From the NCBI GenBank assembly GCA_963662285.2, contig CAXXMV010000006.1, positions 928,001-992,000 of the forward strand: DNA of 64,000 nucleotides, given 5' to 3'. Of the stretch, positions 11,568 to 43,761 are shown piece by piece. Each line of letters starts with the position of its first letter. Position 1 is the first letter of the stretch. The notes beneath the pieces are model-generated. The model worked only from the letters and a program-made list of their open reading frames with translations. It was not told the origin of the DNA and ran no database searches. This DNA is from a bacterium (GTDB lineage: Bacteria; Hinthialibacterota; Hinthialibacteria; Hinthialibacterales; Hinthialibacteraceae). The position numbers and the translations under genes were made by a program.

Positions 11568-12293
11568 ATGAACGGATTCTTTATCACCGGTACTGATACA
11601 GAAATCGGCAAGACGCTGATAACCGCATTATTGACGCTTGGCCTGAGAAGACGGGGCGTTGATGTTGGTCCGGTAAAGCCTATTGCATCCGGTGGGATTG
11701 AGGTGGATGGCGTATTGGCATCTCCTGATGCGCTGGTATATAAGAAATTTTCAGGGATCGACGAAACGGTTCATAATCTTTGTCCTGTATGCTTCAAACA
11801 TCCCGCCTCGCCTCATCTGGCTGCGGAAATGGAAGGCCAGGTTATTGATCCTCAAATAGCGATTGAAGCGCTGCAAATTTTACATGAGAAATATCAGGCG
11901 CTTATGGTTGAAGGCATCGGCGGATGGCTGGTTCCCATAACCTATGATTATTCGATTGCTGATTTCGCAGTCGACCTGAATATGCCGGTAATTTTAGTAT
12001 CCGCCAATAAGTTAGGGACGCTTAATCATACGTTACTGACCATCGAATCGATTCGTAAAAGGGGATTGAAACTGGCTGGCGTTATCATAACCCATCCCGC
12101 ACCGCCTGCGGATCAGCATATTGCGCTTAATAATATTGAAACAATTGAACGTATTGGAAAAACCAAAATCCTGGGTAATATTCCTTACCTGGGTCAGGAT
12201 ATAGAACAGAAAGAGAACGCGGCTTCATTATGGCCGCAGATTAAGGATGCATTTCAGTGGCAGACAATTCACCAACTACTCAACATTCAATAG
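11568..12293 (+). CDS. bioD: Dethiobiotin synthase
   Basis: FITGTDTEIGKT, VEGIGG, LGTLNHTLLT. Confidence 0.95.
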   Translation: MNGFFITGTDTEIGKTLITALLTLGLRRRGVDVGPVKPIASGGIEVDGVLASPDALVYKKFSGIDETVHNLCPVCFKHPASPHLAAEMEGQVIDPQIAIEALQILHEKYQALMVEGIGGWLVPITYDYSIADFAVDLNMPVILVSANKLGTLNHTLLTIESIRKRGLKLAGVIITHPAPPADQHIALNNIETIERIGKTKILGNIPYLGQDIEQKENAASLWPQIKDAFQWQTIHQLLNIQ

Positions 12294-13639
12294 AAAAAAT
12301 CAAGCAATGGAGAGAATGGGATCAGCAATACGTATGGCATCCATTCACTCAGATGAAAGAATATGCTCAAGAACCGCCGCTTATCATTTCGCATGGTGAG
12401 GGGGCTTATCTTTATGACATCAACGGCGACTGTTATTTCGACGGCAACTCGTCATTATGGGTTAACCTGCACGGCCACGCCCGTGTGGAGATTACCGAAG
12501 CCATTACATCACAAGCGGAGAAGATCGCCCACTCAACCCTGTTGGGTCAGGGTAACATTCCCTCTATCGAGTTCGCCAAACGCTTGATCGATATTGCGCC
12601 GGATGGTTTGGCCAAGGTCTTTTATTCCGACAATGGATCGACCGCCAATGAAGTGGCGCTCAAAATGGCTTTCCAATATTGGCGGCAAAATGACCAGCAT
12701 CAAAAGAGCAAATTCATCACCTTCGATAACGCCTATCATGGCGACACTATCGGCAGCGTCAGCCTGGGCGGAATTAATCTGTTCCACCATATCTTCGGTG
12801 ATTTACTGTTTGAGCGGTACAGCATCCCATACCCGGTTTATTCCAAATATACTGCGACGGAATCTCCTGAGACGGTCGCTCAACCCTCGCTGGATGCCTG
12901 TGAGAAACTGCTCAAAGAACATAGCGGACAGATGGCGGCTTTGATTGTCGAACCGCTGATCCAGGGGGCTTCGGGCATCCGAACGGCGCCTCCAGGCTTC
13001 CATAAGTCTCTGCGTGAATTATGCACCAGGTATGATGTGCTGATGATATGCGATGAAGTATTCGTCGGCTTTGGACGCACCGGAACTATGTTCGCCTGCC
13101 AGCAGGAAAACGTCTCTCCCGATTTCATGTGTCTGGCCAAGGGAATCAGCGGCGGCTATCTGCCATTGGCGGCGACTTTGACCACTCAGCGGGTGTTTGA
13201 TGGCTTCTTAGGCGACTACTCGGAATACAGAACCTTTTTCCACGGCCATAGTTATACCGGAAATCAATTGGGCTGTGCGGCAGCGTTGGCCAGTCTGGAT
13301 ATCTTTGAAAAGGATGATACGCTTAACACTGTCAAGCCGGTGTATGAACATCTGGAGAAACGGCTCGATGCGCTCTATGCATCCAGCGACCATGTCGGCG
13401 ACATTCATCAACGCGGCCCATCGGCTGGCGTGGATATCGTCCGCAGCCGCAGCCGGAATGAAGAGTATGCATTGGAAGAGAAGACCGGCGCCAAACTCTG
13501 CTATGCCTTACGTAGGCATAAAATCTGGCTGCGTCCATTAGGAAACACCCTGGTTATCATCCCGCCGCTGATAACCACCATAAAACAGATCGACTATCTG
13601 ATGGACGCCATAGAAAAATGTTTAGAGGATGTGTTGTGA
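12257..13639 (+). CDS. bioA: Adenosylmethionine-8-amino-7-oxononanoate aminotransferase
   Basis: [58 protein letters not shown]; adjacent to bioD. Confidence 0.95.
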
Positions 13640-13725
13640 TTCCTCTCCCAAGATTGGGAGAGGTTAGGTGAGGGTTGATAACGGGCCAATGTCATTAAGT
13701 TAACCGTGTTGTACCCTCTCCCGCC

Positions 13726-14175
13726 GGGCTACTCTCCGTACACAAATCAAAAGAGGAGAATGAAACGGGGAGCATCATAGAATGGGGAGCATCGGCTTCT
13801 AGCCGGTGTGTCAAATAGAATAGAATGAGTCCTATTACGCATAATCATTTCCATGGAGATAGGAGGATGAAAAAGGAATAACCGATTTGTGTTGTGATGC
13901 CGGATCACGTGCACATCCTCCTTACGCTATTGGAAATTCCAAACCTTGGATATCATTCGATCACAACAATACTTCATAGCATTAAAAGTTATTCATCAAT
14001 AGAAGCAAACCAGTTAGGAAGGGATTGGGCTACCGGCTAGAAGCCGATGCTCCCCTTTTTGATGTTCCCCTTTTTGATGCTCTCTGGTTATTGATAGAGT
14101 GTTTTTTTCAGTTGATCAGAGGTAGGCGTGTTGCCACTGCTTCAATTTCACAACAATGTGTACGGAGAGTAGTCC
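13726..14175 (+). mobile_element. MITE with GGGCTACTCTCCGTACACA TIRs carrying a REP-flanked RAYT remnant (copy 1)
   Basis: 19-bp TIR with 1 mismatch, inserted in the loop of a CCCTCTCCC-nnn-GGGAGAGGG hairpin; near-identical inverted copy at 43228-43730. Confidence 0.85.
13882..14040 (+). pseudogene. Internally deleted REP-associated tyrosine transposase (RAYT, Y1 HUH) remnant
   Basis: Translates ICVVMPDHVHILLTLLE...ILHSIKSYSSIEAN (HUH motif); flanked by inverted GGGGAGCATCGGCTTCTAGCCGGT at 13784-13807 and 14032-14055. Confidence 0.8.
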
Positions 14176-14310
14176 GCAGGAAAGGTTAGGGTGAGGGGGA
14201 TGTACAAAACAACTTAAGTTAATAACATTGGATAACGGGCGCCCCCGCAAACGCCATACTGTTAGATAGAGCTGTAAGCAAAATATATCAAAAAAGAGGG
14301 TTATAAAATC

Positions 14311-14697
14311 ATGACAAAACGTTTATTCGCGCCAAAAGACGGACCTGCCCCGGTTGGTCCATATTCACCTGCCGTAGCAGCTAATGGATTCCTGTTTGTA
14401 TCCGGTCAAATTCCTTTGAATCCCGCCACTGGAGAACTGGTGACTGATTCTTTTGAGAATCAGGTTCGACAGACTTTAGATAACTTAAAGAGCGTAGTCG
14501 AATCAGCGGGAATCACGCTGAATGAAGTAGTCAAAGTAACCATTTTTGTGGTTGACCTGGCTAATTTCGGCGAACTAAACCAGATATATGAGGAATACTT
14601 CAGCCAGAGCAAACCAGCCCGCGCCTGCGTCCAGGCCGCCGCTCTGCCCAAGGGAGTAGATGTAGAAATCGAAGCGGTTGCTTATTTGCCTGAGTAA
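14311..14697 (+). CDS. RidA/YjgF family reactive intermediate deaminase
   Basis: PAPVGPYSPA, VSGQIP, PARACVQAAALPKGVDVEIEAVA. Confidence 0.92.
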   Translation: MTKRLFAPKDGPAPVGPYSPAVAANGFLFVSGQIPLNPATGELVTDSFENQVRQTLDNLKSVVESAGITLNEVVKVTIFVVDLANFGELNQIYEEYFSQSKPARACVQAAALPKGVDVEIEAVAYLPE

Positions 14698-14724: not shown

Positions 14725-15228
14725 GGGCGCCAAGGGCAATATCCTTTCTGCCCTTGACTGACAACAATGACGAAAAGTAATCAAACCTATGATCCTATAA
14801 ACGGCGGTTAATTTTGACAATGTAGAAGTAAGTCATTTTCAATCAGCTAGATAAGAGATTATTATTAATTTATCCGCATAACCCGGAAGGTGAAATTACT
14901 ATAGTGGAGATTTGTTTGCGCGAGCGCCTTCTATCAACCCTCACCTAACCTCTCCCAATCTTGGGAGAGGGATGTATAACCAAAGTGTTTTGAATAACTA
15001 AGTCTAAACGATCTAAACGCTTATATCCAAAATCCCTCTCCCCCAAGTTTGGGGGAGAATTCAAGAGGGGGTTGTTTTCTATAACTAGAGATTTTCCAAT
15101 TAACTTTAGAATGATAATCTAACCGCCGTTTTCAGATTCTGTTTTCCGTGTGGATCGTTGGTGGGAATTATTGTTATAAAAAGAAGTGGACTAAATCAAG
15201 GGCAGAAAATACACTGCCCTTGGCACCC
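14725..15228. repeat. Paired inverted REP (family C) element with a nested MITE
   Basis: GGGCGCCAAGGGCA..TGCCCTTGA (14725-14757) and TCAAGGGCAG..CTGCCCTTGGCACCC (15196-15228); homologous pairs at 33078-33334 and 51920-52139. Confidence 0.8.
14795..15135. mobile_element. Putative MITE (TIR CTRWAAACGGCGGTTA) carrying two family-A REPs
   Basis: CTATAAACGGCGGTTA / TAACCGCCGTTTTCAG (14/16 match); flanks ATC/ATT; the homologous site in the 33078-33334 copy is empty (TGATTCTATTTTC). Confidence 0.6.
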
Positions 15229-28648: not shown

Positions 28649-28921
28649 ATTCCTACCCCAGGCTTGGGGGAGGTTAGGAGGGGGTTGCGCACCCCCCCCT
28701 CTGACTCCAATGTCATTAAGTTAAGCAATTTTGACCATACAATAGGTGGTTTGATCAAGGGCTGACCGCAATGCGGTCTTGCCCTTGGCACCCAGTAATG
28801 TTATTAACTTAAGTTATTTGAATGTCCCTCTCACACTAACCCTCTCCCGGCGGGAGAGGGGACAACACTTTTAACTTAATGACATTGCCCTCTAACTCCC
28901 CCCAGGCTTGGGGGGAGAATT
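28649..28921. repeat. Family-A REP doublet interrupted by a composite MITE
   Basis: Same doublet as the uninterrupted copy at 30491-30572. Confidence 0.8.
28708..28887. mobile_element. Composite IS4-like MITE with 11-bp TSD
   Basis: Perfect 17-bp TIR CAATGTCATTAAGTTAA; TSD CCCTCTGACTC (28697-28707) / CCCTCTAACTC (28888-28898); a third internal TIR at 28796; contains family-C and family-B hairpins. Confidence 0.85.
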
Positions 28922-43097: not shown

Positions 43098-43227
43098 TAT
43101 TAAGCGCATTCATGGGAGTGTGGTTTATTCTTGGCTCTTCACCCAAATCTTATTCGGGTCGGGGGGGGGGGGCATTGTAATTAACTTAGGTTGTTTTAAC
43201 ATCCCCCTCACCCTGCCTTCTCCCGAA

Positions 43228-43730
43228 GGGCTACTCTCCGTACACATTGTTGTGAAATTGAAGCAGTGGCAACACGCCTACCTCTGATAAACTGAAAAAA
43301 ACACTCTATCAATAACCAGAGAGCATCAAAAAGGGGAGCATCGGCTTCTAGCCGGTACGCCAATCCCGTCGGTTCTCTTCACACAAAAAAGAATACTTTT
43401 CCACGATTTCAACCAATCCCATCCTAACCGTTTGCTTCTTTTGATGAAAAACTTTTAATGCTATGAAGTATTGTTGTGATCGAATGATATCCAAGGTTTG
43501 AAATTTCCAATAGCGTAAGGAGGATGTGCACGTGATCCCGCATCACAACACAAATCGGTTATTCATTTTTCATCCCCCTATTTCCATGGAAATGATTATG
43601 CGTAAAGGGGCTCATTCTATTCTATTTGACACACCGGCTAGAAGCCGATGCTCCCCGATCTATGATGCTCCCCGATCTATGATGTTCCCGTTTCATTCTC
43701 CTCTTTTGATTTGTGTACGGAGAGTAGCCC
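43228..43730 (-). mobile_element. GGGCTACTCTCCGTACACA-TIR MITE with REP-flanked RAYT remnant (copy 2)
   Basis: Perfect 19-bp TIR; REP pair at 43333-43356 and 43633-43656; minus strand reads CVVMRDHVHILL...IKSFSSKEAN; sits in a family-B hairpin within degenerate IS4-like ends (about 43173-43761). Confidence 0.85.
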
Positions 43731-43761
43731 GATGAGAGAGGGGGCATGGTTAAACTACATT

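Follow-up and report, generated by a model that had tools for sequence, protein, structure and literature searches.

The window, by which is meant the whole 64,000-nucleotide stretch of DNA that was analysed, contains a 670-bp spacer between two ordinary genes in which three small dead mobile elements are nested one inside another, and the question raised by this locus is what each of these elements is and how they came to be stacked. The original prediction had described a palindromic repeat, a 544-bp unit, an inner element and a REP-flanked RAYT fragment; all four of these sequence observations were recovered where they had been placed, and the nesting is real. Three insertion events are demonstrable at 13641-14252, and the sequence features involved are far beyond chance, with 38-111 matches per motif in the genome compared to 0 expected from a shuffle.

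The spacer is very probably a fossil pile built up when DDE-type elements of the IS4 family inserted three times, on each occasion at a palindrome centre, with a RAYT gene carried as a passenger in the third level. The anatomy of the pile, the target duplications, the target bias, and the deletions shared between copies, together with homology in the ends and in the transposases associated with them, are direct observations. The levels are numbered here from the outermost (level 1) to the innermost (level 3), and their coordinates are collected in Table 1.

Results

The spacer and its outermost repeat

The stop codon of the upstream aminotransferase gene directly adjoins the repeat pile (13639 vs 13641). 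An orthologous empty site was not found, as the aminotransferase lies within 1.5 kb of ridA in none of 19 relatives, and because the gene pair is adjacent in none of them the empty sites used for comparison are only paralogous. No short-read contig from public runs covers the whole nested locus; two joints in these runs skip 453 and 457 bases (13725>14179 and 13728>14186, each in a single contig, with 90% likeness and 31-39 letters per side), and they are read as paralogous empty MITEs rather than alleles.

Level 1 is a REP-like two-hairpin repeat, designated family A, whose first hairpin spans 13642-13663 (arms 13642-13651 and 13654-13663) and which is interrupted in the loop of its second hairpin. 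The family consensus includes CTCTCCCAAGATTGGGAGAGGTTAGGWGAGGGTTGATA, and 109 copies are present in the genome when a 32-nt core is matched with at most 4 mismatches, compared to 0 in one 1-Mb shuffle scaled to the genome. None of the PF01797 genes of this genome (G000) is flanked by family A, and the three that were read through (L002-L004) have a different REP in their flanks.

Table 1. Features of the nested spacer, its flanking genes and related copies in the window
Feature	Position	Strand	Remarks
Upstream gene, class-III aminotransferase (BioA-like)	12257..13639	+	ORF; Pfam PF00202, E 1.6e-95
Level 1, left part: family-A core with first hairpin and 5' arm/loop of second hairpin	13641..13686	+	
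Left copy of 10-bp duplication, GATAACGGGC, the loop of family A's second hairpin	13677..13686	.	100% direct repeat; family consensus
Level 2, left arm: end 13687-13703, hairpin arm CCCTCTCCC 13714-13722, loop GCC	13687..13728	+	
Level 3: 444-bp non-autonomous Tn5-like element carrying deleted RAYT/REP module	13729..14172	+	
Cargo, left REP (GGGGAGCATCGGCTTCTAGCCGGT), cognate REP of the RAYT	13784..13807	+	
Cargo, RAYT remnant, 48-aa frame reading VVMPDHVHILL	13894..14040	+	HUH motif and ~40 residues kept
Cargo, right REP, inverted copy	14032..14055	-	
Level 2, right arm: 9-bp duplication 14173-14181, decayed hairpin arm, TTAGGGTGAGGGGG, end 14214-14230	14173..14230	+	
Right copy of 10-bp duplication (14231-14240) and family-A tail	14231..14262	+	Compared with empty copy C6:942938
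Downstream gene, RidA/L-PSP family	14311..14697	+	ORF; Pfam PF01042, E 2.7e-43
Uninterrupted family-A copy, paralogous empty site for level 2	14914..14971	-	
Uninterrupted 92-bp level-2 MITE, intact hairpin CCCTCTCCCGGCGGGAGAGGG, paralogous empty site for level 3	28796..28887	+	
Second nested copy: level-3 element 43231-43727 (497 bp) within decayed level-2 MITE	43173..43742	-	

A MITE of IS4-family origin

The level-2 unit that interrupts family A (13687-14230) is 544 bp long with level 3 inside it, the uninterrupted type being 92 bp and carrying a hairpin of the type CCCTCTCCC-NNN-GGGAGAGGG. Its 17-nt ends, CAATGTCATTAAGTTAA and the reverse complement of CAATGTTATTAACTTAA, are alike at 15 of 17 positions and start with 5'-CA, and it is bracketed by an exact 10-bp target duplication, GATAACGGGC, at 13677-13686 and 14231-14240. 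A total of 147 such ends were counted, and the units bracketed by them range from 86 to 544 bp. Three pairs of 10-bp duplications are perfect (10/10), and agreement at 8 or more of the 10 positions is seen in 6 of 23 pairs, compared to 7 of 506 permuted pairs. The usual targets are small hairpins other than family A.

Level 2 is indeed a MITE of IS4-family descent, which bears out the IS4 likeness that had been proposed for it. Duplications of about 10 bp are typical of the IS4 family, of which the IS10 and IS50 subgroups have 5'-NT ends (PMC2266710); the level-2 MITE, with 5'-NA ends and a duplication of about 10 bp, fits the other subgroups. In a related genome (G012:C139), the 214-aa C-terminus of an IS4-type transposase, which has the Y(2)R(3)E(6)K motif YHERWGIEENFKTMK and a PF01609 match of 35.9 bits, runs into an exact copy of the level-2 end, its stop codon overlapping that end. 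An 87% copy of this piece is present at G012:C105, and a decayed transposase relic (41%) adjoins an exact level-2 end at G000:C8:1342613-1342840. An intact element with level-2 ends was not found, the only transposase pieces being these C-terminal ones in G012 and G000; PF13006, the IS4 N-terminal domain, was found in 0/20 genomes of the family, and none of the 8 DDE_Tnp_1 (PF01609) matches in G000 has level-2 or level-3 ends.

A partner from the ISAzo13 family was considered and rejected. An exact level-2 end adjoins an ISAzo13-family transposase in G012:C38 (PF07592, E 1e-143), but the ISAzo13 element is delimited by ends of its own and lies 12 nt into a level-2 element, and other copies of this level-2 arm continue differently. 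Two identical 1294-bp ISAzo13 copies are present in G000.

The inner element and its choice of palindromes

Level 3 interrupts the centre of the level-2 hairpin. The inner element had been predicted to be 450 bp long with 19-bp terminal inverted repeats; its presence is upheld, while its dimensions are refined to 444 bp and 16-nt inverted ends (13729-13744 and 14157-14172; CTACTCTCCGTACACA…TGTGTACGGAGAGTAG), which start with 5'-CT. The longer inverted stretch at 13725-13744 and 14157-14176 is 95% complementary, and its outer GGG/CCC is part of the target duplication, which is 9 bp long and of the type CCC-NNN-GGG, that is, the inner 3 bp of each hairpin arm together with the 3-nt loop. At this locus the two copies, CCCGCCGGG (13720-13728, inside the level-2 left arm) and TCCGCAGGA (14173-14181), are alike at 6/9 positions, the right hairpin arm having decayed.

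Among 15 complete pairs in G000, two agree at 9/9 positions and have different sequences (ACTTGGGGG and CCCGGTAGG), two at 8/9 and four at 7/9, so that 4/15 agree at 8 or more positions compared to 10/210 permuted pairs; the permuted control is high (mode 5/9) because the targets share a consensus, and the case rests on atypical sites. At L007 a 3-bp direct repeat, AGA, lies outside GGGC...GCCC, which places CCAGAGGG on both sides of the element, and at L008 CCCTCTGGG is found on both sides. A reading with a 3-bp duplication and 19-nt ends was replaced by the present one with 9 bp and 16-nt ends because the atypical sites duplicate 9 bp.

The insertion points are biased towards palindromes: 9/15 reconstructed level-3 sites have at least 7/9 arm positions paired, compared to 387/200,000 random positions, and 33/45 level-3 ends abut CCCNNNGGG with at most one mismatch. 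There are 879 CCCNNNGGG sites, of which only 97 have extended arms, and survivorship could inflate the hairpin bias, in that genic insertions would be lost. The further proposal that each layer carries the target of the next holds for level 2 and level 3, since 9 level-2 hairpins in G000 are occupied by level 3 and 24/24 level-3 ends in a relative, G011, lie within ccctctCCC-TCT/AGA-GGGagaggg; it does not hold generally for levels 1 and 2, as the level-2 insertion is present in only 1/109 family-A copies, and no evidence for it was found in the case of the RAYT module.

The RAYT and its REPs as cargo

The inner element and the REP-flanked RAYT fragment, which had been counted as independent tiers, are a single element. 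Matches to the 16-nt ends (at most 3 mismatches) lie within 250 bp of a REP and in the correct orientation in 45/52 cases, distributed over 30 loci, and the remaining 7 are lone matches with 3 mismatches. Full-length copies, at G000:C1 ~404700 and at L007 and L008 in G011, have the order end, REP, intact RAYT, REP, end.

In the window copy the inverted REP arms are 27 nt long (13781-13807 and 14032-14058; 96% complementary), and the N-terminus and tyrosine region of the RAYT have been deleted. The remnant scores E 0.0024 and 18.5 bits against Pfam Y1_Tnp and, owing to its fragmentary state, falls short of the 23-bit cut-off. The prediction that it comes from a RAYT-type Y1 transposase is confirmed by the full-length paralogue at G000:C1, whose 169-aa frame scores 34.3 bits against PF01797 (Y1_Tnp), above the cut-off, and aligns with E. 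coli TnpArep (4er8, the best solved relative; E 1.9e-4), HUH motif included. The REPs that flank the RAYT in L007 and L008 are 28-nt perfect inverted repeats. G000 contains 79 REP copies, 55 of them in loci with DDE-type ends; the other 24 are in 16 loci without such ends, several of which are element fragments. Since 55/79 copies lie inside DDE-ended elements, the REP family has probably spread mainly by means of its carrier.

Relative to the full-length copy, the window element lacks reference positions 142-309, 316-350, 486-591 and 600-652, and deletions are common to copies at different loci (142-309 in 11/15, 316-350 in 13/15, 486-591 in 9/15 and 452-632 in 4/15). Two RAYT-dead subfamilies of level 3 have been amplified, and because the internal deletions that destroy the RAYT are common to other copies, these RAYT-dead copies must have moved in trans. 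The copies in G011 look young, being 98.3% alike with exact ends and many of them at contig ends; the G011 assembly is ~93% complete, and repeats often go unassembled.

Among the distant RAYT relatives, of which 80 were fetched and 37 checked, an inverted repeat of at least 20 nt directly flanks the gene in 29/37, often with a GCTTCCAGC-type centre, and outer 16-nt ends were found in 0/37. Keyword searches of the open-access literature, which are not proof of absence, returned no account of a RAYT lying within ends of the DDE type, and the carriage of a RAYT and its REPs by a DDE element that spreads them appears to be new.

Tn5-like transposases with matching ends

The family of the inner element had been left unassigned; it derives from a Tn5-like element of the IS4 family, is non-autonomous and internally deleted, and has REP-flanked RAYT cargo. 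A 951-bp unit in G014 has perfect copies of the 16-nt ends and no REP, and encodes an internally deleted transposase whose Pfam support alone is below the cut-off; fragments of this protein abut the same 16-nt end in G009 and G010. Its metagenome homologues are full length (440-500 aa), with the same kind of ends and with insertion sites in palindrome centres, and the 36 metagenome copies with both ends and flanks include 7 with a duplication of at least 8/9 and 17 with at least 7/9 arm pairs. PF01609 is above cut-off for two of these homologues (L214 and L251). A third, L217, which is full length and whose ends differ from those of level 3 at 2/16 positions, is homologous to the Tn5 transposase of known structure (1mm8; E 2.1e-26, residues 31-481). 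In these relatives the Tn5-like transposase has YSQRWFIEELFRVIK as its Y(2)R(3)E(6)K motif. The level-3 ends presumably also resemble the published end sequences of Tn5.

Level 3 thus has the 5'-NT ends and the 9-bp duplication of IS50/Tn5-like elements together with a Tn5-homologous transposase, the last in relatives only. An autonomous copy was not found in G000; the G014-related transposase has 0 matches in G000 and G011 (E up to 1e-5), and a full-length autonomous copy with exactly the level-3 ends was found nowhere in the genomes and metagenomes searched. Membership of IS200/IS605 is contradicted by the 16-nt inverted ends and 9-bp duplication. Levels 2 and 3 are both MITEs, in that they are short, have inverted ends and a target duplication, and occur in many copies without a working transposase.

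Discussion

The history of the pile

If the three-insertion history is correct, level 2, with its 5'-CA ends, would have inserted through a staggered cut of 10 bp across the second-hairpin loop of family A, and level 3, with its 5'-CT ends, by way of a 9-bp staggered cut centred on the MITE's hairpin. A Tn5-like transposase dimer supplied in trans may have moved level 3 by cut-and-paste, and the symmetric choice of target would reflect a dimer that reads either a symmetric 9-bp site or an extruded palindrome. The pile is presumably now inert, because no intact transposase of either the level-2 or the level-3 family was found in G000.

A variant to which a tentative probability, somewhat short of even, can be given is that the 544-bp composite of levels 2 and 3 entered family A as one unit by means of the level-2 ends, the inner insertion being older and having taken place elsewhere. 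The perfect outer duplication beside an inner one of 6/9 with decayed hairpin arms points in this direction, although at a divergence of ~15% between copies such a difference is weak evidence. The range of the units bracketed by level-2 ends, which extends to 544 bp, and the recurrence of nested level-2 and level-3 units at ~9 loci of G000 also favour a composite move, but the junctions differ between composites (gcc/gca here; tcc, atc and ggc elsewhere), and therefore the other composites are not copies of the one in the window. In addition, the inner element has its nearest relative at C8:567727 (92%), outside any level-2 MITE.

Four true tiers, in which a unit of RAYT with REPs entered an empty 16-nt-ended MITE by its own Y1 mechanism, are unlikely. 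No REP-free short unit with 16-nt ends was found at 30 loci in G000 or among 24 ends in G011, and the window copy derives by deletion from a full-length cargo element; any such capture happened once in an ancestor and elsewhere than at this locus. What can be said for it is that in other phyla RAYT and REPs form a classical, self-contained module, that the distance from REP to end differs among genera (3 nt in G009, 17 nt in G015, and 37-40 nt or more in G000 and G011), and that the G014 Tn5-like element shares the 16-nt ends but has no REP. It is far less probable again that the RAYT itself moves the 16-nt-ended element, producing the 9-bp duplication by nicking both strands of an extruded palindrome symmetrically. 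The element contains no gene other than the RAYT, searches of G000 and G011 recovered no Tn5-like transposase, and action on hairpins is established for the RAYT E. coli TnpArep; yet inverted ends with a fixed 9-bp duplication are a DDE signature, both features being absent from IS200/IS605-type Y1 elements as these are described in PMC2817692, and the same ends flank Tn5-like transposases, are missing from the 37 distant RAYT relatives checked, and belong to two amplified subfamilies whose RAYT is dead. Chance similarity or assembly collapse is scarcely credible: the absence of a public-run contig spanning the locus would allow a collapse, but the number of matches per motif, the recurrence of this nested order, both at independent loci whose flanks differ and in further genomes, and the presence of unique flanking genes on both sides all speak against it.

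Relation to known systems

The targeting of palindromes (REPs) by insertion sequences is already published. Tobes & Pareja (2006, PMC1525189) report that five insertion-sequence families target REPs, including IS4 (ISRm22, at the palindrome axis), and the REP-targeting elements named there include ISRm22 (IS4), IS1397/ISKpn1 (IS3) and ISPpu9/ISPpu10/IS621 (IS110). The elements studied here resemble ISRm22 and the others in being specific for extragenic palindromes, the choice of target being a property of the transposase (PMC1525189), and they share with ISRm22 an insertion at the palindrome axis with a direct repeat; they differ from ISRm22, which is described in the same source as autonomous with 6-bp repeats, in that they have 9-bp and 10-bp duplications, are non-autonomous and nested, and include a MITE that carries the target palindrome. 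In one genome, two IS4-family lineages and an IS481-like element all use small palindromes.

The likeness of level 3 to Tn5/IS50 comprises the near-whole-length alignment of L217, the Y(2)R(3)E(6)K motif, the 5'-CT ends, the 9-bp duplication and a symmetric target with G/C ends, Tn5 being reported to favour 9-bp palindromic sites whose outermost pairs are GC (PMC2266710, PMC1525189). The choice of target is far stricter here, being directed at palindrome centres; the clade belongs to environmental bacteria that are uncultured; and the copies studied bear a foreign transposase gene in place of one of their own. In mobile insertion cassettes, or MITEs with passengers, of the MIC231 type, IS4-family ends bracket a passenger gene instead of a transposase and are moved in trans. 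The present case differs in that the passenger is itself an enzyme of mobile DNA, a RAYT with its own REPs, and in that the cassette has decayed into a high-copy MITE.

Published RAYTs, as described by Nunvar (2010, PMC2817692) and Bertels (2017, PMC5581495), are Y1 HUH genes between two inverted cognate REPs and lack the multiplicity of insertion sequences. The RAYT studied here shares with these RAYT/REP(IN) systems both the arrangement and the presence of one intact gene in the genome, but its gene and REPs lie inside DDE-type ends. The IS200/IS605 family has a related Y1 transposase fold (Pfam Y1_Tnp), and is described as lacking terminal inverted repeats and sizeable target duplications (PMC2817692), whereas level 3 has inverted ends and a duplication.

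Implications

The locus provides a clean natural example of small palindromes serving as landing sites, which may let mobile DNA pile up in spacers and not in genes, as the original prediction had proposed, and nested piles of this kind account for puzzling “transposase fragments” that turn up in spacers, as well as for contig breaks in assemblies from metagenomes. The widespread clade of Tn5-like transposases in uncultured bacteria, with its narrow symmetric targets, raises the question of whether sequence or DNA structure is being read.

RAYTs have been described as single-copy, domesticated and immobile, and here a RAYT and its REPs have been multiplied as the passenger of another transposon. 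It is conceivable, if rather improbable, that the RAYT/REP system switched vehicles, having been packaged in palindrome-seeking Tn5-like ends and spread by a DDE mechanism within genomes and perhaps between genera of the family. If so, supposedly sedentary and vertically inherited RAYT/REP systems would gain a route by which to move and to seed new REP populations; the two enzymes might even cooperate, with the hairpin-processing RAYT aiding the formation of hairpins in the target or donor; and every insertion would add new hairpins as landing sites for other elements.

Repeat structure of the spacer

The 670-bp spacer between a class-III aminotransferase gene and a RidA-family gene in the source genome G000 (8 contigs, 7.29 Mb, 44% G+C) holds a pile of repeats, in which all of the sequence features listed in the original prediction, namely the 10-bp repeat, both pairs of inverted ends, the 27-nt arms and the frame that they enclose, were found. 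The window corresponds to positions 928001-992000 of contig C6 in G000. Genome-wide, each motif has between 38 and 111 matches, compared to none in a control in which, for each motif, 1 Mb was shuffled once by mononucleotide and the count scaled to genome size, so that no motif is expected by chance. The structure in the window is real and well explained. It comprises a REP-like repeat of family A (level 1), a MITE with 17-nt ends inside that repeat (level 2), and a 444-bp element with 16-nt ends inside the level-2 hairpin (level 3), which carries a RAYT remnant between inverted REPs.

Features of the locus (window positions) and deletions in level-3 copies (positions in the full-length copy L007 of the relative G011)
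Feature	Position	Remark
Class-III aminotransferase gene	12257-13639	one side of spacer
RidA-family gene	14311-14697	other side of spacer
Exact 10-bp direct repeat GATAACGGGC	13677-13686 and 14231-14240	
Level-2 inverted ends, 17 nt	13687-13703 and 14214-14230	
Second (inner) inverted end pair	13725-13744 and 14157-14176	
Inverted arms, 27 nt	13781-13807 and 14032-14058	enclose frame reading VVMPDHVHILL
Uninterrupted family-A copy	14914-14971	1.2 kb from split copy
Deletion (RAYT start lost)	L007 142-309	11/15 G000 copies
Deletion	L007 316-350	13/15 G000 copies and L008, the other full-length G011 copy
Deletion	L007 486-591	9/15 G000 copies
Deletion	L007 452-632	4/15 G000 copies

Level 3 is a single element with a RAYT as cargo

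The original prediction had separated the level-3 shell from the REP-flanked RAYT remnant as two tiers, but they constitute one element. With up to three mismatches allowed, the 16-nt end CTACTCTCCGTACACA matches G000 at 52 places, 45 of which have the REP GGGGAGCATCGGCTTCTAGCCGGT within 250 bp in matching orientation, the other seven being lone, three-mismatch matches; end and REP occur together at 30 loci of this genome, and the ends alone at none. A full-length copy near G000:C1 404700 consists of an end, a REP, an intact 169-aa frame, an inverted REP and a decayed end; its RAYT spans 148 aa from an MSRR start (Pfam Y1_Tnp, 34.3 bits), and this copy also lies inside a CCCTCTCC...GGAGAGG hairpin. 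Two further full-length copies with exact ends, 776 and 736 bp long and 98.3% alike, were found in G011 by way of L007. When those 15 G000 copies that are complete were aligned to L007, deletions common to many of them were mapped, which indicates that two RAYT-dead subfamilies multiplied after deletion, the first of which includes both the 444-bp window copy and a second window copy at 43231-43727.

More distant RAYT relatives (35-48% identity, from many phyla; 37 checked of 80 loci fetched) have an inverted repeat of at least 20 nt directly flanking the gene in 29 of 37 cases, many of these repeats with a GCTTCCAGC-type centre, while the outer 16-nt ends occur in none of the 37. The inner REPs therefore belong to the RAYT, which is the cargo of the level-3 element, and the Tn5-type shell is lineage-specific. 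Among solved structures, the RAYT is closest to E. coli TnpArep (4er8; E 1.9e-4), and the alignment includes the HUH motif. Since 55 of the 79 REP copies are found in shell-carrying loci, the REP family has probably multiplied mainly as a passenger.

The copy number of a 17-bp unit, GGGGAGCATCATAGAAT, adjoining the left REP varies among copies of the element: the window copy (13766-13800) has one unit before the REP, and at G000:C8:834335-834532 the copy has a 119-bp insertion relative to L007 beside the left REP, with at least six units. A tandem array of three to four units of about 202 bp at G000:C2:1477272-1478011, each comprising a level-2 arm and the left part of level 3 with its REP, is a chimeric fragment amplified in tandem.

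Origin of the level-3 ends in a Tn5-like clade

Level-3 ends are present in several genera of the bacterial family. With at most two mismatches, they number 38 in G000, 37 in G009, 24 in G011, 18 in G007, 8 in G015, 3 in G014 and 2 in G020, and counts elsewhere among the 41 genomes are at background level. In G014, perfect copies of both ends bound a 951-bp unit encoding a 251-aa protein with sub-threshold Pfam matches to Tnp_DNA_bind (17.1 bits) and DDE_Tnp_1 (21 bits). Residues 7-105 of this protein align to the N-terminal region (29-127) and residues 83-245 to the C-terminal region (300-462) of the 496-aa metagenome protein L217, so it is an internally deleted transposase; pieces of it abut the same level-3 end in G009 and G010. 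L217 in turn matches the solved Tn5 transposase over residues 31-481 (E 2.1e-26), the ends of its element differ from those in the window at 2 of 16 positions, and two other metagenome homologues pass the PF01609 cut-off. Members of this clade were not found in G000 or G011. On the metagenome contigs L217, L218, L222 and L265, some full-length Tn5-like copies have near-perfect inverted-repeat flanks extending 20-60 nt past the 16-nt ends; these copies either lie within long palindromic MITEs, as the window copy does, or have true ends that are longer.

Level-3 insertion at palindrome centres

The 19-nt ends originally proposed for level 3 include an outer GGG/CCC that is target sequence; the element proper runs CTAC...GTAG with a 9-bp duplication, boundaries that follow from atypical sites, which duplicate 9 bp (ACTTGGGGG flanks the copy at C2:115727-116206 on either side, and CCCGGTAGG the one at C8:567727-568180). 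The duplication is 8/9 at C1:746699 and C8:821613, and at least 8/9 in 4 of 15 pairs, compared to 10 of 210 permuted pairs, a background that is high because the targets have a common consensus.

CCCNNNGGG (at most one mismatch) abuts 33 of 45 level-3 ends, at least seven of nine further positions are paired in 9 of 15 reconstructed sites compared to 387 of 200,000 random positions, and in G011 all 24 ends lie inside ccctctCCC-TCT-GGGagaggg or its complement, in either orientation. Only 97 of the 879 CCCNNNGGG sites in G000 have five or six of six further arm positions paired, so the bias to full palindromes is strong; loss of gene-hitting insertions may contribute to it. Among the 36 of 62 metagenome loci with both ends and enough flank, 7 have a duplication of at least 8/9 (6 perfect), and in 17, many of them at sites of the form ctctCCC-NNN-GGGagag, the arms pair at 7/9 or better, which makes palindrome-centre targeting a trait of this Tn5-like clade.

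Level-2 hairpins are among the landing sites. By hand count from arm lists, the 29 A-type arms comprise 21 empty hairpins, 5 with a level-3 element and 3 with an IS481-like element or scar; the number of hairpins that hold level 3 rises to about 9 when B-type arms and the window's second copy are included. Outside the window, at G000:C6:673197-674797, a 1.5-kb element occupies this hairpin in a level-2 MITE; its 393-aa frame looks, from its sequence, like an IS481/IS3-type transposase, and the element would be a third lineage on the same landing site. Short remnants of its end, tgtaaaggcctgggacatg, occur in other level-2 hairpins (C8:1557621-1557820, C2:1207963, C2:1487863).

Level 2 and its probable source

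The 17-nt end unites a superfamily of short elements whose inner arms are of at least three kinds (147 ends at no more than two mismatches to a degenerate consensus). In the 92-bp form, as at 28796-28887, TTAGGGTGAGGGGG comes after a central hairpin CCCTCTCCC-NNN-GGGAGAGGG; at 28709-28887 two level-2-type units (a 180-bp span and this MITE) lie adjacent, wedged between GCCCTTGGCACCC-type and CCCCCCAGGCTTGGGGGG-type REPs, so that three or more repeat families make up a mosaic there. Level 2 duplicates 10 bp of its target: 6 of the 23 nearest end pairs match at 8/10 or better (three at 10/10, one at 9/10, two at 8/10), compared to 7 of 506 permuted pairs, and the remaining 17, which show no duplication, have probably aged or recombined. 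Small palindromes serve as its targets: a REP-type motif can be recognised within 24 nt of 57 of the 147 ends compared to 565 of 20,000 random 24-mers; the most frequent layout is GGGCGCC plus 9 nt and then the element, and empty GGGCGCC-N7-9-GGCGCCC hairpins with the same loops also occur (14 strict matches). Four genera of the family carry many copies of the end at no more than one mismatch (G000 80, G015 88, G004 77, G014 42), and it is rare or was not found in the others searched.

The level-2 source is probably an IS4-family element. In G012:C139, a 214-aa transposase C-terminus scores 35.9 bits for PF01609 (cut-off 23) and has the Y(2)R(3)E(6)K motif in the form YHERWGIEENFKTMK, and its stop codon overlaps with an exact level-2 end; G012:C105 holds an 87% copy of this piece, and in G000 a decayed 41% relic (C8:1342613-1342840) adjoins an exact end at 1342850-1342866. 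The passages of PMC2266710 on the IS4 family fit the 5'-CA ends and the duplication of about 10 bp. Neither an intact full-length source element nor PF13006 was found among the 20 family genomes. An ISAzo13-family transposase was rejected as partner, the apparent link being a nested insertion. Two identical 1294-bp elements of that family (G000:C2:87271-88194 and C6:374510-375433; PF07592, E 1.4e-148) look younger than any other insertion sequence seen in G000; their inverted ends are 28 nt long, and no target duplication is visible.

Level 1 and the history of the locus

Family A is a REP-like module of two hairpins (consensus ...CTCTCCCAAGATTGGGAGAGGTTAGGWGAGGGTTGATAnnnnCCACCC...) with 109 copies in G000 at no more than four mismatches in a 32-nt core. 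The level-2 duplication matches the loop of its second hairpin, not its first, and of the 109 copies listed, a single one has that loop interrupted by level 2. Family A flanks none of the Y1-transposase genes of G000; the REP around three classical RAYTs read through in this genome, GGTGCCAAGGGCA...TGCCCTTG, differs from it. These three RAYT genes (G000:C8:1524445, C8:130150 and C8:829561), with frames of 189-196 aa, each lie between inverted REPs of the GGTGCCAAGGGCA...TGCCCTTGA type, a family that also adjoins many level-2 ends.

The locus is probably an inert fossil, in which the outer duplication survives at 10/10 and the inner at 6/9, the RAYT is destroyed, and a matching transposase for level 2 or level 3 was not found in the G000 genome. 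Either the levels were nested in situ at this site, or a pre-nested composite of levels 2 and 3 was moved there by the level-2 ends.

Relation to known systems and consequences

Cassettes in which IS4-family ends surround passenger genes are a known concept. The literature searched yielded no description of a RAYT/REP module inside DDE-type ends, or of a strict Tn5-like clade of the level-3 type. The relevant passages of Nunvar et al. (PMC2817692) describe RAYTs without insertion-sequence-like multiplicity, and other REP-associated transposases as part of bona fide insertion sequences with REPs as targets; those of PMC1525189 report that five insertion-sequence families, IS4 among them, target REPs, and that Tn5 prefers a palindromic 9-bp site.

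In five related genomes (G011, G007, G009, G015 and G004), all of them metagenome-assembled, many contigs begin or end within a level-2 or level-3 element, 20-80 nt from its edge. Such repeats seem to be one of the chief reasons why assemblies break in this bacterial family.
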